Both the position numbers and the translations under genes were made by a program. Of a DNA stretch of 33,953 nt, positions 1-33,953 are shown piece by piece. Source of the stretch: a virus. Positions within the stretch are counted from its first letter, which is position 1, and the number at the start of each line of letters is the position of its first letter. The notes under the pieces were generated by a model. The model was not told where the DNA came from and did no database searches. It saw nothing but the letters and a program-made list of their open reading frames with translations. The DNA is taken from IMG/VR virus record IMGVR_UViG_3300038701_001532, positions 1 to 33,953 of that record, one strand, 5' to 3'.

Positions 1-127
1 CCATAACGCAATAGGGGTTTATATGTCTGATAACAAAAACAACGAAAAGGCCAAGATAGCCGAGCAAGTTTTTAATGAGCATGTTCTCGCCATTCCTGAG
101 CAACTTTTGCACGCTAAATTTGCCGAA
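1..127. repeat. Terminal direct repeat, copy 1 (identical to 33827..33953); most likely a circular-assembly overlap
   Basis: Base-by-base comparison: positions 1..127 (ccataacgcaataggggtttatatg...ctaaatttgccgaa) recur exactly at 33827..33953, which is the very end of the window. Confidence 0.9.
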
Positions 128-3935: not shown

Positions 3936-4145
3936 ATGGATGTGAAACAAAACCGTGAAACACTACCAGAAAACCAACTTAATATGATTACACTCGAACC
4001 AGATCCCTACGAACCAGACAGCTGTTATATAAGATACATTGAAGTTCTAACCACGTCAGGCACTCGAATATGTTTGCCGTTAAACTGGTATAGGTCTATG
4101 GATGATTTGATTAAGCGCACTGAAAAGGTTTTGTATACCACCTAA
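3936..4145 (+). CDS. Hypothetical protein
   Basis: 69-aa ORF with an AGAGG RBS upstream, followed 5 nt later by a GC-rich hairpin. No motif recognised. Confidence 0.55.
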   Translation: MDVKQNRETLPENQLNMITLEPDPYEPDSCYIRYIEVLTTSGTRICLPLNWYRSMDDLIKRTEKVLYTT

Positions 4146-4792: not shown

Positions 4793-5102
4793 TATATAGA
4801 TCCTTTATTTCACCCATCGATTCTAAAACTTGCTCATCAAACAAAGCCGTGCCGGGTGGGTTTAAACGCCTTCTATACACACGGTTTTCGTTTAAAGTGC
4901 TTTCGAGCATCCCCTCAAATCTACCAATTAAGTTTTGAATATGCATGATTTGCGATCTAGCTTGGTTTGCCGTCGGGCTTGATTTTAAGCTAGCCATGGC
5001 AGACTCGAAATAACCCTCTAATTCTGTAACAAGCATGTTCCAATTTTCGGCGGTTTCTTCACCACGTGATTTGATTTCAATTTTGCTCATCATCGCCCCC
5101 AT
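4779..5102 (-). CDS. Hypothetical helical protein (start uncertain: 5102, 5093 or 5090)
   Basis: 107-aa ORF in operon with erf and ssb. It appears to share a helical module with the two upstream genes (see findings). Confidence 0.55.
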   Translation of the reverse strand: MGAMMSKIEIKSRGEETAENWNMLVTELEGYFESAMASLKSSPTANQARSQIMHIQNLIGRFEGMLESTLNENRVYRRRLNPPGTALFDEQVLESMGEIKDLYNGGN

Positions 5103-5604
5103 TTAAATATTTTTCATCAATGAACCTTGTACCTTTTATCTCTTTCATTGCGGTATCAAGCCTTGCAGACAAGCTTTGAATCAGGCCGATTTGTTCGGCA
5201 TGATACTTTTTGTTTTCTTCACCTATAGCGTGAAACAGTCCCATAACCACATGATGCAAGGTTTGTTGGTAATAGTTCCAATAATTTACTAGGTCGTCTG
5301 TTCCAAAATGGATAAGCTCAAATCCACACCGCTTTTTTTCTAAGGCTGGATCTCTGTTTGACGTAATCATGACACTAACCCACGCCCCACGCCTACGAGC
5401 ATCTAACAAGCTGACGTTTGGCCACACACCTAAAGAAATTCTTCTTTCTTGTTTTTTATAGGTATACTTTTTGCGCCATAGCTTAGAACCGTTGGGCATC
5501 ACCTCAAGATATACCCCCCCGCCATCAAACAAATATTTGCTTTTTTCACCTGGCGTTGCCTTGGCTATCATGTCGGTTGTTAGCATTTCTGAGTGTTTCA
5601 TCAT
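5077..5604 (-). CDS. Stand-alone P4-type integrase arm DNA-binding domain (DUF4102 / Arm-DNA-bind_3-like) fused to an unknown C-terminal domain
   Basis: 175-aa ORF. LTTDMIAKATPGEKSKYLFDGGGVYLEVMPNGSKLWRKKYTYKKQERRISLGVWPNVSLLDARRR closely follows the N-terminal arm-binding domain consensus of P4-family integrases. There is no core-binding or catalytic domain. Confidence 0.75.
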   Translation of the reverse strand: MMKHSEMLTTDMIAKATPGEKSKYLFDGGGVYLEVMPNGSKLWRKKYTYKKQERRISLGVWPNVSLLDARRRGAWVSVMITSNRDPALEKKRCGFELIHFGTDDLVNYWNYYQQTLHHVVMGLFHAIGEENKKYHAEQIGLIQSLSARLDTAMKEIKGTRFIDEKYLNGGDDEQN

Positions 5605-5903: not shown

Positions 5904-6742
5904 TTTTTTGCCTCTTTCGCTTTCGCTTCGTCTATCCGTCTTAGTATATCTTTTAGCCACACTTGCACTTTGGGTTGCAGCATTGGCCACGTTGCTTTTT
6001 TGCCTTCGTCGCTTGCTCGCTTCCAAGATCTATAAGCTTTAATCTGGGCGTTTTTGTCATCGACTAAGCAGCATTCAATTATAACATTCATCAACTGTAA
6101 TGACTGTTTCGGTTTTTCTCTTGTGGTTTTTTCTGGCAGCTTGTCAAAATGGTTTGATGATGGGCGGTCGTCGATTTCTTCTTTGCCATCGTCGATTAAA
6201 AACATGGCTTGCATGGCATACTTGCGTGAGTAGCTTTGTGCGCTTCCAGTTATCTGGCTTTCATCCTTTCCTTTTTGAACTTCTTGCTCTCTCGCCCACC
6301 CGTTAGCCGTGACTACATCGCCCCCATACTTAAAGTGTACGGTCGACTTGATGTAATAACGCTCGCCTTTGTGCTCTAAGTCGTCAACTATCCAGCAAGC
6401 CGCGCCATCAGGTAAGTTGCGCTTAATCTCTTTATACATCGATTCGGCGTTTCTATAGCTATAGCCACCAAATGAGTTGGTCATGTCTTTGGGTACTCTT
6501 AGCCGTGACTGAACATAAGTTAAAGCGTCGTGTACATCATCGTACTTGTCTTTCTCTTTAACCTCATATAGATCGGGGTCTGGCTCTGGCTCAGATGGGG
6601 GCGGCTCAGGTCTGCTTATGCCCCTAGCGTTTGCCTGTGTTCCCCTTACAGTGTCTTGCATCCAATTATGGTAATGCTCTTCACTGTCCATTTGCTGCCT
6701 GTCGTCGTAATCATCATCCGTCGGTATGTCTTGCTCATTCAC
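5900..6742 (-). CDS. erf: Erf-family single-strand annealing recombinase
   Basis: 280-aa ORF. VPKDMTNSFGGYSYRNAESMYKEIK...HKGERYYIKSTVHF...GSAQSYSRKYAMQAMFLIDD matches ERF family blocks. It lies upstream of ssb. Confidence 0.85.
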   Translation of the reverse strand: MNEQDIPTDDDYDDRQQMDSEEHYHNWMQDTVRGTQANARGISRPEPPPSEPEPDPDLYEVKEKDKYDDVHDALTYVQSRLRVPKDMTNSFGGYSYRNAESMYKEIKRNLPDGAACWIVDDLEHKGERYYIKSTVHFKYGGDVVTANGWAREQEVQKGKDESQITGSAQSYSRKYAMQAMFLIDDGKEEIDDRPSSNHFDKLPEKTTREKPKQSLQLMNVIIECCLVDDKNAQIKAYRSWKRASDEGKKATWPMLQPKVQVWLKDILRRIDEAKAKEAKK

Positions 6743-6776
6743 GTTGAGATCCCCTTATTAACAAAGCGTTATTATA

Positions 6777-6797
6777 TGCTATACTAAGCTATACCGC
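6777..6797 (+). promoter_or_regulatory. Extended -10 promoter (TGCTATACT) with a GCTATA-N4-GCTATA motif upstream of the plus-strand block
   Basis: TGcTATACT at 6777..6785. GCTATActaaGCTATAccgc is at 6778..6797. An AAGGAA RBS lies 10 nt before the ATG at 6820. Confidence 0.5.
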
Positions 6798-6819
6798 AAA
6801 GATAAGGAACATTGAATTT

Positions 6820-7029
6820 ATGAGAATATTTAGGCGTGAACGTCATGAAGGCCGACGACCTGAACAGGTGAATATACGCTTGTCAAAAGAAGAAAAAGAG
6901 TTGCTCGAAACCGTGGCCGATTCTCTCGATATGGGGGCATCTACCTATGTCGCCATCGTCGCACTTGAAAAAGCTAGAAAGCAACTGAAAGCCAACAACA
7001 CCAAAAAAGATAAAAGGAAACCTAAGTAA
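6820..7029 (+). CDS. Ribbon-helix-helix (CopG/Arc/MobC-like) DNA-binding protein
   Basis: 69-aa ORF. RPEQVNIRLSKEEKELLETVADSLDMGASTYVAIVALEKARK follows the beta-strand, helix, helix pattern of RHH proteins. The C-terminal tail is basic. Confidence 0.65.
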   Translation: MRIFRRERHEGRRPEQVNIRLSKEEKELLETVADSLDMGASTYVAIVALEKARKQLKANNTKKDKRKPK

Positions 7030-7030
7030 G

Positions 7031-7270
7031 ATGCTGTTTACTTATAGACTGGTTAGGCTGTTGGGGGTGAGTGGTGACAATGTAAATGTATACTCACAGC
7101 TTGGCATCATCTGTAACAATGAATCAGATCTAAGGCTCTTAGCTGACAGGCTCAAGGATGGGCAGATTAATGATCTATATGTAACACATGGCGCTACCCC
7201 TGACGCAGCTTGTCCCCTATCTGCTTATATAACAGATACACCAACATCTATTGTATCCACACCTAAATAA
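7031..7270 (+). CDS. Hypothetical protein
   Basis: 79-aa ORF starting 1 nt after the RHH gene stop (translational coupling). No motif recognised. Confidence 0.55.
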   Translation: MLFTYRLVRLLGVSGDNVNVYSQLGIICNNESDLRLLADRLKDGQINDLYVTHGATPDAACPLSAYITDTPTSIVSTPK

Positions 7271-7335
7271 ATTTAGTTATTTACCCCACGTTCAGCTATA
7301 CCGTGCTATATTGTTAATATAGGCAAACGAAACGG
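7271..7335 (+). promoter_or_regulatory. Repeated promoter/operator cassette, copy A
   Basis: About 65 bp that align with 8092..8156. The two copies share the 18-mer GCTATACCGTGCTATATT (7295..7312), which contains the extended -10 TGcTATATT. This is followed by the palindrome TATATT-gtt-AATATA and then GGCAAACGAAA. Confidence 0.6.
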
Positions 7336-7346
7336 GCAGCAAAAAC

Positions 7347-7505
7347 ATGAAGCTAAAATCAGTATTTGAAGAATTACTCAGCGACTACTCAAATGGTGTA
7401 ATCACCCTAGATCGCTTGGTTAGCATTGCTTCAACTTTCGACCTTAATGATAAAGAGTTAATCAGACTATCTTTAACCATCACCCAAAAAGCGCAAGCCA
7501 AATAG
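7347..7505 (+). CDS. Small hypothetical protein (52 aa; not in the ORF track)
   Basis: Manual translation gives MKLKSVFEELLSDYSNGVITLDRLVSIASTFDLNDKELIRLSLTITQKAQAK*. It fills the gap between promoter cassette A and the next gene. The RBS is weak. Confidence 0.45.
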   Translation: MKLKSVFEELLSDYSNGVITLDRLVSIASTFDLNDKELIRLSLTITQKAQAK

Positions 7506-7516
7506 GAGCTTCCACA

Positions 7517-7744
7517 ATGAAATCATTACTAGCAGTTACACTAATACTTTTATCAACTTCGGCTTTGGCTAATCGTGGCGTTGCTACCAACCCACGTATA
7601 ACAACAGTAGATCAGCGCGTTGTTTACGGTGAACAATCCAAAGAGTTCTACCAAGTCAAAAAACAACGTGTATGTAAAACAGACAGCAAAGGCAAGCAAA
7701 CTTGTTTTACTCGTGGCGTAGCGCAACACATACCCACTAGATAA
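7517..7744 (+). CDS. Small secreted protein (Sec signal peptide)
   Basis: 75-aa ORF with a TAGGAG RBS. MKSLLAVTLILLSTSALA|NRG is a classical signal peptide with an AxA cleavage site. The mature part has 2 Cys. Confidence 0.65.
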   Translation: MKSLLAVTLILLSTSALANRGVATNPRITTVDQRVVYGEQSKEFYQVKKQRVCKTDSKGKQTCFTRGVAQHIPTR

Positions 7745-7753
7745 GGGGGGCAT

Positions 7754-8077
7754 ATGAAACTTGATGAACCAGACTTAAGAATAGGCGATCTATTGTGTCG
7801 CAAAGGGGGCGAAACGGTCTATTGTTTAATAGCTCGTAGGGGCGACACACTCGACGTTTGCCGTCATGAAGATGCTAACGCCCTATTTCCGTTTTTGTTC
7901 AATGGCGACACGTTCAGCTTCCCCATGATTGACATGGTACATATAAACACCAAGCAGTTTGCTAAAATCTATAAAGCCGAGCATGGCAAGGATTTACCGC
8001 GTCAGTACGATATGCAAACCCATAAATGGGTGTTGGGTGTTGGGCGTGGTGAGCCTGACGAAAACGAAGAATTGTAA
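7754..8077 (+). CDS. Hypothetical protein
   Basis: 107-aa ORF with a GGGGGG RBS-like tract upstream. No motif recognised. Confidence 0.6.
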   Translation: MKLDEPDLRIGDLLCRKGGETVYCLIARRGDTLDVCRHEDANALFPFLFNGDTFSFPMIDMVHINTKQFAKIYKAEHGKDLPRQYDMQTHKWVLGVGRGEPDENEEL

Positions 8078-8091
8078 CTACACTTAAATAT

Positions 8092-8156
8092 ATTTAGTCG
8101 TTTACCACACATTGGGCTATACCGTGCTATATTTTAAATATAGGGCAAACGAAAGA
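8092..8156 (+). promoter_or_regulatory. Repeated promoter/operator cassette, copy B
   Basis: Aligns with 7271..7335. It has the identical 18-mer GCTATACCGTGCTATATT (8116..8133), then the perfect palindrome TATATTT-t-AAATATA and GGGCAAACGAAA. An AAGAGG RBS precedes the ATG at 8168. Confidence 0.6.
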
Positions 8157-8167
8157 GGTATTAAAAA

Positions 8168-8404
8168 ATGAATGAATATATAGCAATCGACGTAATCACA
8201 GCTAACTTAGTCCACCTTGGTTATAGAATGAACGATCCAGAATGGTTGGCTTTTAAACACTTATCGCTTGGCGCTGCCATGGTCTTTGATGCTAGGGAGT
8301 TGGGCGAGTTTATCGAGCAACTACACGAAAACCGGGTCGAAGTCGTTAGCAACTTTCAAAAGATGCATGACAATATCGTCAGCCATATGCAAAAAAGCGC
8401 ATAG
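8168..8404 (+). CDS. Hypothetical protein
   Basis: 78-aa ORF downstream of cassette B. No motif recognised. Confidence 0.6.
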   Translation: MNEYIAIDVITANLVHLGYRMNDPEWLAFKHLSLGAAMVFDARELGEFIEQLHENRVEVVSNFQKMHDNIVSHMQKSA

Positions 8405-8412
8405 GGGGCGAT

Positions 8413-8739
8413 ATGGACACGTCTACAATCAAACAGATACTAAGGCGGCTACAACTAGCCAACCATGCGATTAAAGATGCTCAGCGGCTTATGGTGGAGT
8501 CTGGCGACAACTCGCTAGCCTCTGATACCACAAGCCTAGAATTGACTATCGACTTTCTCAAGATGTCATTTGACAACGTCAAGTACTCAGCTAGCGCCTT
8601 GCAGATGCTCGACTACTTAGAGGGCGATCTAATTAATGACAGGGCTAGGCAAATGCAAGCCTACATTGAAAAGAAAGTCGAAGAAATCGACACCAAAGAG
8701 GCCAACAAAGATATAATCGATCCCAAAGATATTAACTAA
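8413..8739 (+). CDS. Hypothetical protein (predicted helical)
   Basis: 108-aa ORF with a GGGGG RBS upstream. No motif recognised. Confidence 0.6.
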   Translation: MDTSTIKQILRRLQLANHAIKDAQRLMVESGDNSLASDTTSLELTIDFLKMSFDNVKYSASALQMLDYLEGDLINDRARQMQAYIEKKVEEIDTKEANKDIIDPKDIN

Positions 8740-8752
8740 GGAATTCGTACAC

Positions 8753-8989
8753 ATGCCCCGCTTACTAATAGCAGCCAACTATATTTTGAACCTTGCCAGA
8801 TTCGCGGCTCTGTGGGCTGTTGTGGGCGCTCTGTCAGGTTTTTTGATTGGCCTTGTCCTAACCTTCTATTTTCTTGAACCCTATACGTGGGAGTCTGCAC
8901 GCTTTGGCCTTGAGTTCGGTTTCTTGTTTGGCCTTGGTTTTTGGCTCTCATGCGATGCTTATTTTTTAGCTAAGAGATTCAATTCTTGA
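8753..8989 (+). CDS. Small membrane protein (2-3 TM helices)
   Basis: 78-aa ORF. Hydrophobic segments include ARFAALWAVVGALSGFLIGLVLTFYFL and FGLEFGFLFGLGFWL. Confidence 0.6.
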   Translation: MPRLLIAANYILNLARFAALWAVVGALSGFLIGLVLTFYFLEPYTWESARFGLEFGFLFGLGFWLSCDAYFLAKRFNS

Positions 8990-9015
8990 CATAGATCTAT
9001 TTTTCTTTATCCTTG

Positions 9016-9043
9016 TTGGCTCGGCAATTCAGCCGAATATAAT
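9016..9043 (+). promoter_or_regulatory. Sigma70-type promoter dedicated to the double-glycine peptide gene
   Basis: TTGGCT (9016..9021), a 16-nt spacer, then a perfect TATAAT (9038..9043). An AAGGAA RBS is at 9055..9060 and the ATG is at 9069. Confidence 0.55.
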
Positions 9044-9068
9044 AATAAGCAAACAAGGAAATACGGAC

Positions 9069-9341
9069 ATGAAAGAGTTAGCAACAACAGATCTTAATCT
9101 TATCAGTGGCGGCAATCCAGCCTTAGCCGTGATTGAGGGGGCTGCACTGTTTATCGCAATTCCTGAGATTGGCGGGGCAATCGGGCAAGATTGGAGTTAC
9201 CCCACGATAGGCGCGGGGCTAGGTGAGTTTGTCTTTGATGTTACCCACGGCGACCAGCTAGGCCAAATGACTTATGATGCGTCAGATTTCGGTCTGTCTT
9301 ATATACCGTCAGCGTTCCCTAATGAATACCCTCATTGGTAA
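9069..9341 (+). CDS. Peptide precursor with a double-glycine (bacteriocin/microcin-type) leader
   Basis: 90-aa ORF. The first 15 aa, MKELATTDLNLISGG, fit the double-glycine leader consensus: L at -12, acidic at -8, L at -7, I at -4 and GG at -2/-1. The predicted 75-aa mature part has a Gly/Ala-rich hydrophobic N-half (NPALAVIEGAALFIAIPEIGGAIG) and no Cys. Confidence 0.6.
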   Translation: MKELATTDLNLISGGNPALAVIEGAALFIAIPEIGGAIGQDWSYPTIGAGLGEFVFDVTHGDQLGQMTYDASDFGLSYIPSAFPNEYPHW

Positions 9342-9622
9342 AAGTAGGTTGCTTGGACTAGTAGCGCCAAGCTAAGCGCCAAGGCTACAGGGAGGCCGTA
9401 TTTAACGATTCGGCTTTCTTGTACTGCCTTACTTGATAATCCCAAATATACCGGGTCTTGGCCTCTCAGAGCCGCCCTAAGCGCCATGATAGCCAGCACA
9501 ACACAGGTTACTTTAATCTCTTTGATTCCGATGATAACAAGTCCACATGCAAGCCATGTTTTTAAAGTGGTATCAGCGAACAGCTTTACATCACCGAGCC
9601 AGTTGTTTGTTAATGTCTTCAT
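9332..9622 (-). CDS. Small polytopic membrane protein (candidate immunity protein; inference only)
   Basis: The ATG at 9622 is preceded by an AGGAG RBS. The track ORF starts at 9646, inside the upstream gene. It has 3 hydrophobic segments (WLACGLVIIGI, VTCVVLAIMALRAAL, YGLPVALALSLALLVQATYF). Its 3' end overlaps the double-glycine peptide gene by 10 nt. Confidence 0.6.
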   Translation of the reverse strand: MKTLTNNWLGDVKLFADTTLKTWLACGLVIIGIKEIKVTCVVLAIMALRAALRGQDPVYLGLSSKAVQESRIVKYGLPVALALSLALLVQATYFYQ

Positions 9623-12680: not shown

Positions 12681-13036
12681 TGATCTTTGCTCTCTTTACC
12701 TATGCTGTGCAGTGACAATATATAACCCTGTTCACGTATTGGATTCATCATCAAGTTTGTGATGTGCTCTCTTAAATGCTCTTCACCCTCAACTTGCTTA
12801 ACCATTTCACAAGTTTGTGTAAACACGGTTTGCGCAATAGTTAGCAGCGCCCCTCTTAGCACTATGCCGCTGTGCTCTTTTCCACCGGCTAGCTCAGTAA
12901 AAAGCTGCTTAAGGATCTTATCTGCAAGGTTTAAAGCTTTGTTTACGTTTTCCCTTTCTTCTTGAGTAAGTTCTATTTTTTTAAATAGCTCTTCTACCTC
13001 TTCACTTTCTAGGTTTGTAAATGCGTGCGTCTTCAT
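12677..13036 (-). CDS. Hypothetical helical protein (possible paralogue of 11709..12068)
   Basis: 119-aa ORF. See the 11709..12068 entry for the shared landmarks. Confidence 0.55.
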   Translation of the reverse strand: MKTHAFTNLESEEVEELFKKIELTQEERENVNKALNLADKILKQLFTELAGGKEHSGIVLRGALLTIAQTVFTQTCEMVKQVEGEEHLREHITNLMMNPIREQGYILSLHSIGKESKDQ

Positions 13037-13202
13037 TTATAAGATCCCTTTCTATATCTTTAATTATGTATTCTAAGCAGCTAATACATTCATTCATAAG
13101 CTTACATGTGCCGTCGTAGCCTTTCGGCTGCAACACGTTTTGCAATACATGTCTGAGCGTTTCGACTGCAAACTTGTATGATAATACGTGTTGATTATCC
13201 AC
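13002..13202 (-). CDS. Hypothetical protein
   Basis: 66-aa ORF directly abutting the upstream gene. It overlaps the downstream gene by 35 nt. Confidence 0.45.
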   Translation of the reverse strand: MDNQHVLSYKFAVETLRHVLQNVLQPKGYDGTCKLMNECISCLEYIIKDIERDLINEDARIYKPRK

Positions 13203-13532
13203 TTAGTGCGCTTTGTTAGATTCATCTGTGAAATCGGCTTTAATTCCGAATATGTTAGTGATTGAGCCGATTAAGTTTATTAAGTCATTCACTAGTAATT
13301 GGCGTGGCGCTTTCCTTGTTAACCCTTCCATGATGTAGCTATTAATTAGTGTCTGAATTGTCGATCTAAATATGACTTGTTGTTGCCCTACGTTATCATC
13401 ATGCCTAGCTAACACTTGTTCTATAAACTTACCAATCGTTCTAACCTCAATCATGCCTTGCTTTATCTCTTCAAGCTCTTCGCCTTTATAACCCGCGTCT
13501 TTTGCTTGTTGTATTTGTTCGTCTAGTGTCAT
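13203..13532 (-). CDS. Hypothetical helical protein
   Basis: 109-aa ORF immediately downstream of the recombinase gene. No motif recognised. Confidence 0.55.
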   Translation of the reverse strand: MTLDEQIQQAKDAGYKGEELEEIKQGMIEVRTIGKFIEQVLARHDDNVGQQQVIFRSTIQTLINSYIMEGLTRKAPRQLLVNDLINLIGSITNIFGIKADFTDESNKAH

Positions 13533-13534
13533 AA

Positions 13535-14131
13535 TTATATTGCCCCTACCATTGCGCGTTGTGCCTCTGGGTTAATTTCGATGTATGCCTCAGTAGATCC
13601 AAGGCTGCTATGTCCAGCCATACGCTTAACGTCTTGTATAGATCCACCATGTAATGATGCAGTTCGAGCCATGTTTGTTATAAATGTACGCCTACCCGAA
13701 TGACTGGAATATCCAACAAGCTCAAGTTCTCTAAACCACGAGTAAAACAGCTTAACAATGCCGTTTGCTGATATCCTTTGACCGCGATAATTCAGCATTA
13801 TTGAATTTGTTAGGCGTGGCTTTATCCTATGTGTTTCGTATAGTTCTTGAAGTGCTCGCCTTAACTCTTTGTTCATGTAGATTATACGCCCCCCTGATTT
13901 ACCTTTCGATTGGTTGTCGTATATATCTATTTTCTCGCCTACCCTCAATTGATCGTCATCCATAACGTTTTGCCATTCAAGGCGTGAGATCTCCTTTGCT
14001 CTCAATCCAGCTTTGCAGCTTAATAAAAAGATACATTTGTTGCGCTTGTCATATTTGAGCGTTTCTAAATATCTTAATACCAAGTTTATGCGCCTATCGC
14101 TTAGATAGTTCGCTTTCTTTTTGTTTGCCAT
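13535..14131 (-). CDS. int: Tyrosine recombinase/integrase, catalytic-domain-only size (198 aa)
   Basis: Catalytic residues are recognisable: AGLRAKEISRL (Arg I), HSGRRTF (His-x-x-Arg) and GHSSLGSTEAYI (His/Tyr nucleophile). There is no arm-binding N-terminal domain, and only about 40 aa precede Arg I. The size matches FimB/FimE-type small recombinases. Confidence 0.85.
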   Translation of the reverse strand: MANKKKANYLSDRRINLVLRYLETLKYDKRNKCIFLLSCKAGLRAKEISRLEWQNVMDDDQLRVGEKIDIYDNQSKGKSGGRIIYMNKELRRALQELYETHRIKPRLTNSIMLNYRGQRISANGIVKLFYSWFRELELVGYSSHSGRRTFITNMARTASLHGGSIQDVKRMAGHSSLGSTEAYIEINPEAQRAMVGAI

Positions 14132-14322
14132 TTAACTTAACCTTGTGTCTGAATGAAAACCCGATTATTTAAGTTATTATTCAATCAACTAAAAAGGGTC
14201 GCCGAGTATAGCAAGTAAACATGGGCGAGTGAATAGAATGTGCATTTTATGTATCAAATATATAAAGCTAACAAGCTAATGCCCTAGAATAAGGGGGAAT
14301 TAAAAACGGGGTTGTCAAGGGT

Positions 14323-14333
14323 AAATTTGTCAC
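14323..14333. repeat. Left copy of an 11-bp inverted repeat (AAATTTGTCAC)
   Basis: AAATTTGTCAC at 14323..14333 is the exact reverse complement of GTGACAAATTT at 14546..14556, with 212 bp between them. A related GATTTGTGAC is at 14358..14367. Confidence 0.7.
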
Positions 14334-14473
14334 GATTATTTGATTTTTTTACTCCTTGATTTGTGACGCTCGCAATACACAAAATTGATTCTGTCTTGCC
14401 GACAATACGCAATGAAAACTCGAAGCTATTTTTAAACGTCGAGTTATCACTAAGTCAGGTGTCTTTTATTTAT

Positions 14474-14487
14474 AACCACTAGTGGTT
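14474..14487. repeat. Perfect 14-bp palindrome AACCACTAGTGGTT
   Basis: Read directly from the sequence; it is self-complementary. Confidence 0.8.
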
Positions 14488-14489
14488 GT

Positions 14490-14513
14490 AATGTTTCACG
14501 GAATGTTTCACGG
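14490..14513. repeat. Perfect tandem duplication of the 12-mer AATGTTTCACGG
   Basis: 14490..14501 and 14502..14513 are identical. Confidence 0.85.
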
Positions 14514-14545
14514 TTGGGCGGAAAGTTTTCGCCCAAATCGCACAG

Positions 14546-14562
14546 GTGACAAATTTGGTCAC
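14546..14562. repeat. Core-type near-palindrome GTGAC-AAATTTG-GTCAC (candidate recombinase crossover site); includes the right copy of the 11-bp inverted repeat
   Basis: Two 5-bp inverted arms flank a 7-bp AT-rich spacer. This is the geometry of tyrosine-recombinase core sites. Confidence 0.45.
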
Positions 14563-14573
14563 ATTGAAACCTT

Positions 14574-14673
14574 GCTACATTCGCTACATTGCTACATAGG
14601 GTTTACATTGCGTTGCATTAAAACCCCATATCACGGGCTTTAAGCTACATGGGGTTTACATAGGGGTTTACAT
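14574..14673 (+). repeat. Cluster of 7 same-orientation YTACAT repeats (4 x GCTACAT, 3 x GGGTTTACAT); iterons or arm-type sites
   Basis: GCTACAT is at 14574, 14583, 14591 and 14644. GGGTTTACAT is at 14599, 14652 and 14664. Spacings between successive units are 8-12 bp, with one 42-bp gap. Confidence 0.75.
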
Positions 14674-14739
14674 TGCAGCGCGGCGAACTGGTAAGGATTA
14701 CTTGATAGTTGAGCTATTAGAGAATTCCTAATAACTCAT

Positions 14740-14775
14740 TTTCGTAAAGTGCCGTTTTACGAAATACATTTCGTA
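14740..14775. repeat. Overlapping inverted repeats built from the TTTCGTAA motif
   Basis: TTTCGTAAA (14740..14748) pairs with TTTACGAAA (14756..14764). TACGAAAT-ac-ATTTCGTA is at 14758..14775. A fourth TTTTCGTAAATGCC copy lies at 15220..15234. Confidence 0.6.
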
Positions 14776-14838
14776 GTTCGCCCCCAACAACACGTTTTTA
14801 TGTTAGGCAGTATTCCGGTAATCCCGGATAACTGAAAC

Positions 14839-14868
14839 TTATCATTTGTTATCATTTGTTATCATTTG
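14839..14868. repeat. Three perfect tandem copies of TTATCATTTG
   Basis: 14839..14848, 14849..14858 and 14859..14868 are identical. The last unit covers the stop codon of the 14862..15128 ORF. Confidence 0.85.
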
Positions 14869-15128
14869 CCAAAGCATGAGCAATGCCACCACTTACGCCC
14901 ACGCTTTTTGCTTTCTTGTTTATCTTGCACTGATTCAACGTCGGTTTTGGTTATGCCGTATTCCCCTTCGATCTTAAACTTATGGGTTATGGTTTGATTG
15001 TGGTTATGGCTGTTTATGGTTTCATGCACATCAAGCTTGGTCGCTGTGTGCTCTGCATCAACAACCGGCTTTAACTCTTTTATAGCTGCCTGTGCTACAG
15101 CTGCCACCAATGGCGCACCTTCTATCAT
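14862..15128 (-). CDS. Hypothetical protein in moron position between the lysis genes and the att-like region
   Basis: 88-aa ORF with a strong GGGGG RBS 6 nt upstream. It has a His-rich centre (SHNHNQTITH) and a basic Cys-containing tail (KKRGRKWWHCSCFGK). Confidence 0.6.
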   Translation of the reverse strand: MIEGAPLVAAVAQAAIKELKPVVDAEHTATKLDVHETINSHNHNQTITHKFKIEGEYGITKTDVESVQDKQESKKRGRKWWHCSCFGK

Positions 15129-15273
15129 AACAACCCCCTTTTTGGTTCGTTACCTATATTAACTATGGCTGTTATTTTTAGGTTTGTCTAGCGGCTAACA
15201 CTTACGATGATTTTCGTAAATGCCTAGTTAACGACACTTCAAAAGGGTACAAAAGTGCTTCAAAGCAAAACTA

Positions 15274-15297
15274 AAAGGTGTCGGATTAGCCACCTTT
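15274..15297 (-). terminator. Possible rho-independent terminator after the lysis cassette
   Basis: AAAGGTG-(10 nt)-CACCTTT. On the minus strand it is followed by TAGTTTTGCTTTG. Confidence 0.35.
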
Positions 15298-15402
15298 AAG
15301 ATGTGGCCTACATAGTGGGGGTGTTGAAATTGCTAAGGTTTAGATACTGGCTCGTAAGCAAGGAGTGCTTTAAGGCAAATGGATTTTGCGCGAGTCAGAC
15401 CA

Positions 15403-15609
15403 TTAGCTATTTTCTCGCTTCCAAGCTTTCAGATCTTCAACAATCATTGCCTGACACCATACAAATACAACAATGTCATGCTTGCTGATAGGCTCACAAA
15501 CTAAGCTACCTTGTGGCGCATAACCTTTTAGTATTGCAATTTTAACTGAGGCCATGAGTTCTTGCCATGAGCTACCTTGCACAACTATATATGGATCTTT
15601 AGGTTGCAT
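15403..15609 (-). CDS. DUF1737-like small protein
   Basis: 68-aa ORF. Its ATG directly follows the stop of the upstream small ORF (TAAATG). For the shared pattern see the 12444..12680 entry. Confidence 0.5.
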   Translation of the reverse strand: MQPKDPYIVVQGSSWQELMASVKIAILKGYAPQGSLVCEPISKHDIVVFVWCQAMIVEDLKAWKRENS

Positions 15610-15753
15610 TTAGTAGATGTCCTTATCAGCAACTAAATTATGTAATACCATGCACCAAAACAAGTATTCTAAAATGTCAGGTATAAAATGCGTTGATACC
15701 GTAATGGCAAACGCACATATACCAACAAGTATACTAGTCGCTAGACTCTTCAC
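15610..15753 (-). CDS. Possible small membrane protein (47 aa, GTG start; not in the ORF track)
   Basis: Manual translation gives (V/M)KSLATSILVGICAFAITVSTHFIPDILEYLFWCMVLHNLVADKDIY*. It has one or two hydrophobic helices and fills the gap between the flanking genes exactly. The GTG start overlaps the upstream gene by 20 nt. Speculative. Confidence 0.3.
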   Translation of the reverse strand: MKSLATSILVGICAFAITVSTHFIPDILEYLFWCMVLHNLVADKDIY

Positions 15754-16039
15754 TGTTCGGGCTAAAATCTAAATTAATGGTTCCATCTTCTAAGTTAAAC
15801 TTTTCTTCGATGTGATCCTCGACGTATTCCTCGGCCATTTCTTCGACGTGATTATCATCGCCAAGGACAAATTGCGAGCCTATACCTAGCGCCGCAACAG
15901 CTGCCAATACAATTAACACAATAGATAAGTCGTATAGCTTCATTTTCTCACCCCATGAAAGTTTTAATATAAGATGCATTATCGAACAGATTACAACCGT
16001 TGCCAGAATTATAGCTACACTAAAAATAATACTATTCAT
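15734..16039 (-). CDS. Putative holin (2 TM helices and an acidic C-terminal tail)
   Basis: 101 aa from the ATG at 16039, which overlaps the upstream stop by 8 nt. TM segments are SIIFSVAIILATVVICSIMHLIL and LSIVLIVLAAVAALGIGSQFVL. The C-terminus is strongly acidic. A second in-frame Met (MKLYD) lies just before TM2. Confidence 0.45.
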   Translation of the reverse strand: MNSIIFSVAIILATVVICSIMHLILKLSWGEKMKLYDLSIVLIVLAAVAALGIGSQFVLGDDNHVEEMAEEYVEDHIEEKFNLEDGTINLDFSPNSEESSD

Positions 16040-17659: not shown

Positions 17660-19674
17660 TAAAACACCACCGTTAAATCATCGTTTGGAATCTCAACGTT
17701 ATATGTTGCCGCTGCACTTGCTACTTGTTCTTGTCTAATTTCTTCGGGTATCTCTGGCACGTCAACTATAAACTGCTCTGTAAATGATGACCTGAAAAAC
17801 TGACCGGGGGCAAACCCATTACCTATGTAACCATTCCAATTAGCCGCCGCGTCAGTCGTTGGATCTTCAGCGTAATGATTGCCTAATACAATCGTGCCGC
17901 TTGGATAGTTCACTGTTGGCGCTGGGGGCGTTGGTCTAACCAAGGATGAATTGCTAGCAGATCCAACCGCCTTGCTAAGCACTAGGGTAAGCTCTGTTTG
18001 AGCCTCGCCCGTTCCTATGTCTAGGCTGTGATTAATCTTAAATACCTTGCCTTTGCCTTGCAGCAAATCGGTGTCGATCTCAACGGTATGTTGAAGGTCA
18101 ATAACTGGCCATATAGAACGATTGATAACGATTCTTGTATCGCGATGCGTGCCAAGTATGGTTGTTTTGGCGATGTTCAATGCAGTATTAACCGCCGCAT
18201 CAAATGTCGCTCTGTTCGTGTCTTGGTTTATGTAGTACGTTGTATCACCGCCCGACTCATTGCCATATGCTGTGTATTTTTCCCACTCCGAAGCGTCAAA
18301 TTCTGCCTGAGCTGCATAAGCGTTGTAACCCTCGACCGTGCCAAACTGTGCTTGTGATTGAGGCGCTTGCACGCTTAGCGTGTATTCTTCAGTCATGGTT
18401 TGCGACCATCTAGTAGAAGCTGTCCAGCTCGCCCCCATGCAGTAAAGCGGCGCAAAGTTAGTACCGCCTGTAATGCGTGTTTCGGTCACGTTGTTACCGT
18501 CTGCGTCTTTAACGGGGTTGCCGTCAGAGTCTTTAACAACGGTGGTTGTACCCGTATACGAAACAGTCGACCATCCAATATAGCCACCAACGCAGCCATA
18601 CCACCCGCTCGGCCAGATAGGAACAAATGTTATGTCATTCTTAAGAGGCCAGCCAGATGACTGGATAGCGGCGCGAATCATATCTCTAAACGTCAACGAA
18701 TAGCCCGACTGCAATATCAAACATATGTTGCCAGCGATTGGCGATGTCCAAGAAAAGTTGCGATCCATTTGATGCAATCTTTCATAACGATATTGGAATG
18801 TAATATTGATCTTGTTCGTGATGTTTGAGCGGCTTGTCAGCTCAACACGTGGGGTTGAATAGAATACGTCGGCATCATCAAGTACATAATCGGCGGTGGC
18901 CTTGGCTGCCCATGCAGTTAGGTGATAGTTTCCGTAAGCATCAAAATCAACCGAATATGGGATCGTTGAGAGTCTTTGCTCTAATGCATCGGCTGTATCA
19001 TCGATATCAGGGAATATGATGCTTGAAAAGTAACCAATACTATTTACGCCAGTAGCTAACTGATTATTGATTCGCTCGGTTCGTCTGTCAGTACATCTTA
19101 GGGTTATCTTTTTGCCGATGATATCAATCTCTGGTATGTCAACTGTGCCGGTAAATACCCTGAACGTGCCGCTATCTGTCCTTATGTCACAGGTAACAGG
19201 TTTGCCACGATAGAAATCAAAGTCTTGTGTGCCAGATGTTGGAATAAGTGTAACGGTCATAATCGCCGCTGTGTTTTCGGTTCGCTCAACGTCTATAACC
19301 CCGTGGATCTGTTCTTTGGGTATCTGGCTTGAGCCAATAACAAGCGTTGCATCCCACCCCGTTCTAGTAAGGTGTGTAGAAACCAATTCGACGTTTTGCT
19401 CAATGCTTATCAGGTTGCCGCTTTGTTCATTTGCGACTTGCTGCTCAATGCTAATGAGTTCGCCAGATCCAACAGTCCACAGTATTACGTCTTGCTCAAG
19501 GCTAATGATTTCACCTGAGCCAATAAAACCGACGTTTTGCTCAATGCTTATGAGGTTGCCGAGCGCCTCAGTTTGGGTATTTTGCTCAATGCTAATGAGT
19601 TCGCCAGATCCAGACTCATAGAACGTTGCGGCTGCATTGACTGGCGCGGCATTAAGTATGGATGCATTAGTCAC
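17659..19674 (-). CDS. Large distal tail protein with N-terminal LISIEQN repeats
   Basis: 671-aa ORF, the largest tail gene after the tape measure. Its N-terminus carries five copies of a G-x-(L/I)ISIEQ motif. Confidence 0.6.
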   Translation of the reverse strand: MTNASILNAAPVNAAATFYESGSGELISIEQNTQTEALGNLISIEQNVGFIGSGEIISLEQDVILWTVGSGELISIEQQVANEQSGNLISIEQNVELVSTHLTRTGWDATLVIGSSQIPKEQIHGVIDVERTENTAAIMTVTLIPTSGTQDFDFYRGKPVTCDIRTDSGTFRVFTGTVDIPEIDIIGKKITLRCTDRRTERINNQLATGVNSIGYFSSIIFPDIDDTADALEQRLSTIPYSVDFDAYGNYHLTAWAAKATADYVLDDADVFYSTPRVELTSRSNITNKINITFQYRYERLHQMDRNFSWTSPIAGNICLILQSGYSLTFRDMIRAAIQSSGWPLKNDITFVPIWPSGWYGCVGGYIGWSTVSYTGTTTVVKDSDGNPVKDADGNNVTETRITGGTNFAPLYCMGASWTASTRWSQTMTEEYTLSVQAPQSQAQFGTVEGYNAYAAQAEFDASEWEKYTAYGNESGGDTTYYINQDTNRATFDAAVNTALNIAKTTILGTHRDTRIVINRSIWPVIDLQHTVEIDTDLLQGKGKVFKINHSLDIGTGEAQTELTLVLSKAVGSASNSSLVRPTPPAPTVNYPSGTIVLGNHYAEDPTTDAAANWNGYIGNGFAPGQFFRSSFTEQFIVDVPEIPEEIRQEQVASAAATYNVEIPNDDLTVVF
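19390..19611 (-). repeat. In-frame internal repeats encoding GSGELISIEQ (x3) and GNLISIEQNV (x2); two of the units form a 141-nt duplication
   Basis: ACGTTTTGCTCAATGCTTAT(C/G)AGGTTGCC is at 19391..19419 and 19532..19560. TTGCTCAATGCTAATGAGTTCGCCAGATCC also occurs twice, 141 nt apart. Confidence 0.85.
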
Positions 19675-33826: not shown

Positions 33827-33953
33827 CCATAACGCAATAGGGGTTTATATGTCTGATAACAAAAACAACGAAAAGGCCAAGATAGCCGAGCAAGTTTTTA
33901 ATGAGCATGTTCTCGCCATTCCTGAGCAACTTTTGCACGCTAAATTTGCCGAA
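33827..33953. repeat. Terminal direct repeat, copy 2 (identical to 1..127)
   Basis: See copy 1. It includes the dam RBS and the first 35 codons. Confidence 0.9.

Follow-up and report, generated by a model that had tools for sequence, protein, structure and literature searches.

In this work we have analysed a small tyrosine recombinase gene, and the non-coding region which lies upstream of it, in the viral genome of IMG/VR record IMGVR_UViG_3300038701_001532 (the window, 33,953 nucleotides). The gene (13535..14131, minus strand) encodes a protein of 198 amino acids and is the first of a co-directional early operon of about 4.8 kb. On the minus strand the lysis genes are followed by 730 bp of non-coding DNA (14132-14861), then by the recombinase and by about 20 small early genes, which include an RNase T-type exonuclease. 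Within the non-coding region lies the palindrome GTGACAAATTTGGTCAC (14546..14562), in which GTGAC and GTCAC surround an AT-rich spacer of 7 bp. An earlier note on this DNA recognised in it the geometry of a recombinase core and offered two explanations, a phage attachment site (attP) or one end of a 212-bp invertible segment. The palindrome is indeed present and has this geometry. Two further readings, just as good, were missed, an operator and a site of the lox or res kind, as were a second palindrome 74 bp away and a separate arm-type protein encoded elsewhere in the genome. The window ends in a direct repeat of 127 bp (1..127 and 33827..33953) and therefore represents a circularly closed, complete genome, the unit of which is 33,826 bp long. 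Over the 16.9 kb compared, the window agrees base for base, and in orientation, with an independent Logan assembly of run SRR15330770.

The recombinase had been described as a catalytic domain without additions, of the size class of the FimB/FimE invertases (198-200 amino acids), and our results agree with both statements. The sole Pfam domain in the protein is PF00589 (residues 14-188, E-value 1.3e-20, 74.4 bits against a cutoff of 27.1); Pfam found no arm-binding or core-binding domain, such as stands at the N-terminus of integrases of the lambda/P4 type, and the structural model, too, covers the catalytic domain alone. The product also matches integrase families of PHROGs. All six active-site residues (R44, K76, H144-x-x-R147, H174 and Y183) are present, and none of them varies across an alignment of 21 members of the family. 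The AlphaFold model built from this alignment has a predicted local distance difference test score (pLDDT) of 91.3. In Foldseek its matches are confined to the catalytic domains of XerA, Tn1549 Int, Cre, IntI, lambda Int and XerH; the first five gave E-values from 2e-9 to 7e-6 and template modelling (TM) scores of 0.6-0.77 relative to the query and of about 0.5 relative to the targets. The protein is thus a complete tyrosine recombinase of the catalytic domain alone, with an intact active site and a confidently predicted fold. Its small size is native and not the result of truncation, since family members across 84 loci are about 190-205 amino acids long, and nearly all of the 120 listed homologues fall between 187 and 212. 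Judged by family models, the protein does not belong to the Fim-type tyrosine DNA invertases (NCBIfam NF007370), for which it scores 30.9 bits against a curated cutoff of 221, the alignment being collinear, weak (E-value 1.9e-7) and limited to N-terminal residues 2-56. Nor does it belong to the Xer families (XerC/D/A/S), where the best score, 51.9 bits, stayed far below the cutoffs (220-335) and the alignment covered no more than the C-terminal half of the models.

The closest relatives of this phage are three short metagenomic contigs, L003, L090 and L004, of which the last two share an identical overlap of 397 bp (100% identity) and thus derive from one phage. Their recombinases are 68% (L003) and 77% (L090/L004) identical to that of the window, and in both phages the gene comes after the lysis genes, with a long non-coding region between. 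In these recombinase-bearing relatives the GTGAC palindrome is kept, as an island of conservation common to the three phages. In L003 it is identical and included in 45 consecutive identical bases, and the best conserved block (14514-14566) reaches 96% identity, where coding DNA of the two phages is 65-70% identical and the non-coding blocks 84-96%. At the same position L090 has GCATGTGACAAAAATTGTCACCGC, with the arms and the spacer length kept between flanks that cannot be aligned; its spacer is AAAAATT against CAAATTT in the window, so that 2 of the 7 bases are changed. By our own estimate about 30 palindromes with arbitrary 5-bp arms and a 7-bp spacer would occur by chance in 34 kb. Because its arms are kept in the relatives, the GTGAC palindrome is under selection, and it therefore stands above this background; the expectation for the pattern GTGAC-N7-GTCAC itself is 0.04. 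The pentamers are also clustered: a stretch of 234 bp holds 4 of the 37 genomic copies of GTGAC/GTCAC, where about 0.25 would be expected. Elsewhere in the non-coding regions of the three phages they occur only in an outward-facing pair, GTCAC-N29-GTGAC (14329..14367 in the window), which is conserved in L090/L004 and deleted in L003. Read in the orientation of the recombinase, the complete element can be written (K)GTGAC-N7-GTCAC(C) (14545..14564), a candidate crossover site or operator. A CRP-like site at this place was rejected by inspection, the spacing of TGTGA-N9-TCACC being wrong. There is one full GTGAC-N7-GTCAC site per genome, as would be expected for a resolution or cyclisation system of the Cre/lox kind.

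What could such a site do next to such a protein? Our preference, which we hold tentatively, is that the palindrome is the crossover core of a self-contained recombination module resembling lox or res systems. An operator and attP, discussed below, stand close behind it as rivals. The recombinase would bind both GTGAC arms, cleave where they border the AT-rich 7-bp spacer and exchange strands with an identical site, either on a second copy of the phage DNA or in a different part of it, so that the partner would be a phage site and not a bacterial attB. Working like Cre/lox, Xer/dif or TnpI with its internal recombination site (IRS), the module might circularise terminally redundant DNA or resolve multimers without insertion into a chromosome, and the remaining palindromes of the region, like the direct repeats that resemble the arms, would act as accessory or regulatory sites. 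We favour this proposal because the protein is an intact catalytic domain of natively small size, the arms are conserved around a changed spacer and arm-like repeats lie beside them. The recombinase and the roughly 730 bp upstream of it, moreover, travel together as an optional module between the lysis and early genes. A 33,989-bp relative, recovered from seven samples, shares this layout, with lysis genes, a non-coding stretch of about 850 bp and a small recombinase. Another relative (L095) and 17 of 19 IMG/VR relatives have no such gene within 10 kb of the tail gene, which indicates that it is optional within the lineage.

A second palindrome of the core type, ATAACC-ACTAGT-GGTTAT (14472-14489), lies 74 bp from the first, in a block (14410..14491) which is 88% identical to L003 and also contains TTATAAAT. 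The core CACTAG[AT]GGTTATAAA is kept in L003, in L090/L004 and in a more distant phage, L100, whose recombinase is 47% identical and whose upstream region cannot otherwise be aligned. None of the 18 examined lineage members without the recombinase has this core. Its restriction to recombinase-bearing relatives ties the region to the recombinase module. In all probability the non-coding DNA serves that module as its partner in cis.

The second explanation of the earlier note was an invertible switch, in which the recombinase would flip the segment 14334-14545 between two 11-bp inverted repeats. The repeat pair is real: AAATTTGTCAC (14323..14333) matches 14546..14556 exactly in inverted form, the two arms being 212 nt apart, and the pair stands beside a recombinase of the FimB/FimE size class, whose N-terminal 55 residues align, if weakly, to the Fim-type model mentioned above. 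The invertible segment itself is not borne out. The left repeat consists of one member of the N29 pair together with AAATTT and is a half-site, without the second arm. L003 has lost it together with a whole 85-bp stretch, and has kept the recombinase, the promoter and the palindrome. In L090/L004 the equivalent sequence, GTGACAAACTCG, has diverged, and its spacer-like bases do not match the spacer of their own palindrome. The conserved recombinase promoter lies outside the segment, between the left repeat and the gene, a promoter scan found no convincing promoter inside it, and both independent assemblies show it in a single, identical orientation. Allowing one mismatch, the 11-mer has 2 matches in the genome where 1.26 are expected, and 39 of 100 shuffled sequences also reach 2, so that a second copy is not unusual and only its proximity is. 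Two complete inverted sites around a promoter-bearing segment, conserved together with the recombinase as in Fim-type systems, were thus not found, and with a family score far under the Fim cutoff as well we consider a switch at this place very improbable.

The remainder of the non-coding region is rich in repeats, and it raises the question of whether the palindrome might be regulatory. The promoter scan placed a sigma-70-type promoter of the recombinase operon at 14205..14233 (minus strand, TTCACT-17-TATACT with a TG extended -10), conserved in position and form in L003 (TTCCAA...TGgTACAAT) and L004 (TTCAAA...TGtTATATT). The perfect TTGACA which had been noticed on the minus strand, facing the recombinase gene, is present (14313..14318), is shared with L003 and leads into the conserved block GTTTTTAATTCCCCCTTATTC (14287..14318, minus strand); no usably spaced -10 hexamer follows it, and the scan did not list it. 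GTCAC directly adjoins the -10 of a weak promoter on the plus strand, TTGTCA-16-GATTAT. Directly after the ACTAGT-centred palindrome come two tandem 12-bp repeats, AATGTTTCACGG (14490..14513, CCGTGAAACATT twice). Each relative has a different array here; that of L090 has 4.5 copies of a 21-bp unit, the first of which includes the right arm of the GTGAC palindrome. The next element is a 23-bp near-palindrome, TTGGGCGGAAA-G-TTTTCGCCCAA (14514..14536), conserved in L003 and absent in L090, with no T-run after it on either strand. On the far side of the GTGAC palindrome, and exactly at the edge of its arm, is a 103-bp block of direct repeats (14567..14669; ATGTAAACC three times and ATGTAGC four times in the orientation of the recombinase). 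These repeats resemble the adjacent palindrome arm ATGTGACC, and the block is an insertion relative to L003, with CAATGT duplicated at its borders. Further upstream, conserved blocks with 87-91% identity to L003 (14670..14775) carry the palindromes TTATTAGGAATTC..CTAATAG and TACGAAATGTATTTCGTA, and an imperfect palindrome, CAGTTATCCGGGATTACCGGAATACTG (14808..14834), is 96% conserved over 26 nt in L003 and L090.

It is possible, if doubtful, that a phage regulator which controls the early operon binds to all of these elements, to the GTGAC palindrome and the N29 pair as well as to the repeat arrays and the remaining palindromes, and that the substrate of the recombinase lies elsewhere. Candidates for such a regulator are the ribbon-helix-helix (RHH) protein, Rep and the stand-alone arm-type protein. 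At least five different conserved palindromes within 730 bp, upstream of a conserved promoter, would suit such a region, as would the GTCAC at the weak plus-strand promoter. Dimeric repressors typically bind 17-bp palindromes with conserved arms and a free spacer, and the GTGAC palindrome fits this description. Tandem pairs of the CCGTGAAACA type occur beside it (14492..14511) and again in the candidate origin region (3942..3962), and GTGAAACA has 8 genomic copies against 1.47 expected; the shared pairs hint at one DNA-binding protein acting at both places. Palindromes are also no commoner upstream of members of the recombinase family than of other genes: a raw excess in the first 200 bp upstream vanished in this comparison (59% against 46%, p = 0.23), and a family-wide upstream palindrome was rejected. 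On the other hand, the only good promoter is about 310 bp downstream of the GTGAC palindrome, which overlaps with no promoter at all, no CI/Cro-type helix-turn-helix repressor was recognised among the proteins encoded in the window, and the CACTAG..GGTTATAAA core is restricted to relatives with the recombinase.

Other functions for the non-coding region were considered and set aside. A replication origin within 14132-14861 is less likely, since an AT-rich, repeat-bearing region adjoins the rep gene elsewhere in the genome and is itself a candidate origin. A cos site is improbable, too: to judge from a relative (L005) which encodes an Sf6-type terminase, packaging by this phage seems to follow the headful mode. 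A non-coding RNA or a tRNA-like core was rejected; Rfam gave nothing above noise and ARAGORN nothing in the window, and the folding z-scores were -2.2 and -1.2.

Could the palindrome instead be the core of attP, as the other explanation of the earlier note has it? Under that reading the phage would be temperate, the recombinase its integrase, and the palindrome a C-O-C' core which pairs with an attB sharing the 7-bp overlap. The module does lie between lysis and early genes, as attP and int do in lambdoid and P22-like phages. The genome is siphovirus-like, with small and large terminase, portal, head and tail genes, two large tail-tip proteins and the lysis genes on the minus strand, and it encodes Erf, a single-stranded DNA-binding protein (SSB), a small Rep-like protein, a junction resolvase, methylase-associated genes and a stand-alone arm-type DNA-binding protein. 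Nine small genes on the plus strand (6820-9341), the only opposite-strand block of the genome, interrupt the minus-strand run, and the gene of the RHH protein (6820-7029, 69 amino acids) is one of them. Erf, SSB, the small Rep protein and the opposite-strand block give the gene content a temperate look. The nearest cultured relatives of a tail protein, at 27% identity, are Pseudomonas phages of the F10/JBD68/MD8 group, which are temperate. A spacer which differs between relatives is what different attB targets would produce, and a separate arm-type protein would be at hand.

Against these points stands the lack of any integrated form. The earlier note looked to prophage junctions in bacterial genomes as a way of placing attL and attR, the ends of an integrated phage; no integrated relative was found. 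Among 185,579 species genomes there was no close homologue of the recombinase, the best 80 being at most 49% identical and sitting in unrelated contexts. More generally, we found no prophage, attB, junction contig or tRNA-like core. None of the 100 relatives of the tail-tip protein is on a contig longer than 52 kb, most of these contigs having 30-41 kb, and both genes which flank the non-coding region are on record only on a single circular contig. Pattern scans gave no match for GTCACCTGTGCGATTTGGGCG in viral and metagenome contigs, for AACCACTAGNGGTTATAAA.. in genome, metagenome and viral contigs, or for GTTATCCGGNATTACCGGAATACTG in viral contigs, so that no further close relatives or prophages were found by that route, and blastn of 13000-16000 against a phage collection also gave no match. 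One relative of about 31 kb with the small recombinase (L005) carries ParA and RelE/MqsA-type toxin-antitoxin genes (6006..7628), which suggest an episomal state and, in part of the lineage, a phage-plasmid lifestyle. The hosts are probably uncultured, and absence from databases does not prove that these phages never integrate. Nevertheless, the lineage data and the distribution of the family, to which we come below, make a classical attP the less likely role, and we consider that reading unlikely.

The separate arm-type protein deserves a few words in this connection. It has 175 amino acids, is encoded between erf and ssb (5077..5604, minus strand) about 8 kb from the recombinase, and its first 90 or so residues form an arm-binding domain of the P4/CP4 integrase type (Pfam PF13356, E-value 2.4e-17; PDB 3ju0, E-value 4e-15). 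The C-terminal 85 residues are unique, with no recognisable core-binding domain. Might the functions of a lambda-type integrase be split here between two genes 8 kb apart? We find it improbable that this protein, bound to the phage-specific direct repeats around the core palindrome, targets the core-only recombinase and gives it directionality. Many short stand-alone relatives of the protein exist, and no arm-binding protein accompanies the small recombinases in the related phage and bacterial loci (L002-L088) or within 20 kb of the gene in phage DSS3P8.

Two observations concern the opposite-strand block. A perfect 20-nt inverted repeat, TTAAAAACATGGCTTGCATG (6196..6215 and 9546..9565, chance expectation about 5e-4 by our own estimate), brackets it, with one arm within erf and the other within an open reading frame (ORF) for a membrane-like protein of 104 amino acids; inversion between the arms would split erf, and the repeat is not present in the relatives L089 and L006. 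In L089, an inverted duplication of 121 and 62 nt with 71-77% identity (18545..18749 and 19172..19376) joins an ORF of 92 amino acids to part of a neighbouring gene of 326 amino acids in the opposite-strand block of that relative.

The family to which the recombinase belongs, with a native size of about 195-205 residues, is very large, with 1,717 clusters in a word-indexed search. The species-representative genomes contain more than 554 family loci, mostly in Alphaproteobacteria and none above 49% identity to the query, and members also occur on 387 plasmids, chiefly of Acinetobacter, Piscirickettsia (2-3 copies per plasmid) and Legionella. A collection of 50,697 phage records gave family matches in 65, and all 30 of those listed are phages of at least 100 kb: phiCbK-like and DSS3P8-like phages, Lacusarx and a Microcystis phage, several of which are described in the literature as virulent. 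A tRNA was found within 1 kb of the gene in none of 60 bacterial loci, and the bacterial loci have no conserved neighbour gene. The immediate neighbours are a heterogeneous set of defence genes (Thoeris SIR2/STALD, ThsA/ThsB, Shedu, AIPR), antitoxins, resolvases and transposases, with no phage hallmark gene among them. In one locus (L007, 10001..15742) the small recombinase lies inside an island which has its own large serine recombinase. Piscirickettsia salmonis (L068, L082, L086 and plasmids) has many copies of the gene, some on scaffolds of 0.7-2 kb which hold little else, a pattern resembling that of a repeated mobile unit. The phage matches of at least 100 kb, the plasmids, the missing tRNAs, the non-phage neighbours, the contigs of at most 52 kb and the optional nature of the gene together disfavour a role in integration.

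Several points weigh against a resolution or cyclisation site as well. The early operon has to find room for its promoters and operators in the same non-coding region, and a 17-bp palindrome with adjacent repeats fits the binding of a repressor, for example of the RHH protein. For a recombinase without a clamp domain the arms, at 5-6 bp, are short. The GTGAC palindrome was seen in the three closest phages only, and the more widely conserved palindrome at 14472-14489 competes with it and could be the true site. The position between lysis and early genes is the classical place of attP and int. The phage of the window has no ParA, and a plasmid state is not evident; a phage with headful packaging and Erf, moreover, does not obviously need a resolvase.

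Phage recombinases which consist of the catalytic core alone are already known as a kind. What is new here is a concrete pair of candidate sites, the palindrome of 17-19 bp with conserved arms and a drifting spacer and the 18-bp palindrome centred on ACTAGT. With so short a list next to the gene, the question of the substrate becomes directly testable. Outside the Fim/RecV-type invertases, as far as our search of the literature goes, we know of no family member with an assigned DNA substrate or role. The module could give a first substrate to this very large and uncharacterised family of minimal recombinases. If the 198-residue protein alone recombines such a short site, it would be among the smallest self-sufficient site-specific recombinases and possibly a compact tool; if it does not, the region is a regulatory one of the ordinary kind, and the recombinase next to it an orphan.

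Among described proteins, those of the phiCbK gp143 type, from large lytic siphophages (CbK-like phages, DSS3P8 and Lacusarx), are the nearest. By tblastn they are 31-38% identical to the recombinase over more than 90% of the protein (E-values from 1e-15 to 2e-25), gp143 itself being 32.6% identical over 92% (E-value 5e-18), and by size, homology and the missing N-terminal DNA-binding domain the protein described here, a catalytic core of about 200 amino acids, can be counted among them. The phiCbK genome paper describes gp143 as a homologue of 208 amino acids in which the clamp domain is missing, and proposes multimer resolution with the help of an accessory protein (PMC3556154). The setting is different, since ours is a 34-kb phage with temperate-like genes, in which the gene lies at the boundary of lysis and early genes beside a conserved non-coding region, whereas in DSS3P8 it lies among DNA-metabolism genes. 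With Cre/loxP of phage P1 the module shares the catalytic fold (TM score of about 0.73 for Cre) and a single palindromic site a few hundred bp upstream of the gene, and the arm-like direct repeats beside the core recall the accessory repeats of TnpI/IRS of Tn4430. Unlike Cre/lox, Xer/dif and TnpI, the recombinase has no N-terminal clamp or core-binding domain, its candidate site has arms of 5-6 bp in place of 11-14 bp, and the phage has no ParA/ParB partition system. The FimB/FimE invertases are alike in size, in having no separate core-binding domain and in the collinear N-terminal 55 residues; they differ in the family score, and the window has no complete pair of inverted sites, no conserved second repeat and no promoter in the segment. 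Integrases of the lambda/P4 type, finally, share the catalytic chemistry and fold and the genomic position beside a repeat-rich non-coding region. They carry the arm- and core-binding domains which are missing here, and no attB, prophage or excisionase was identified for this phage, whose P4-type arm-binding domain resides on the separate protein of 175 amino acids.

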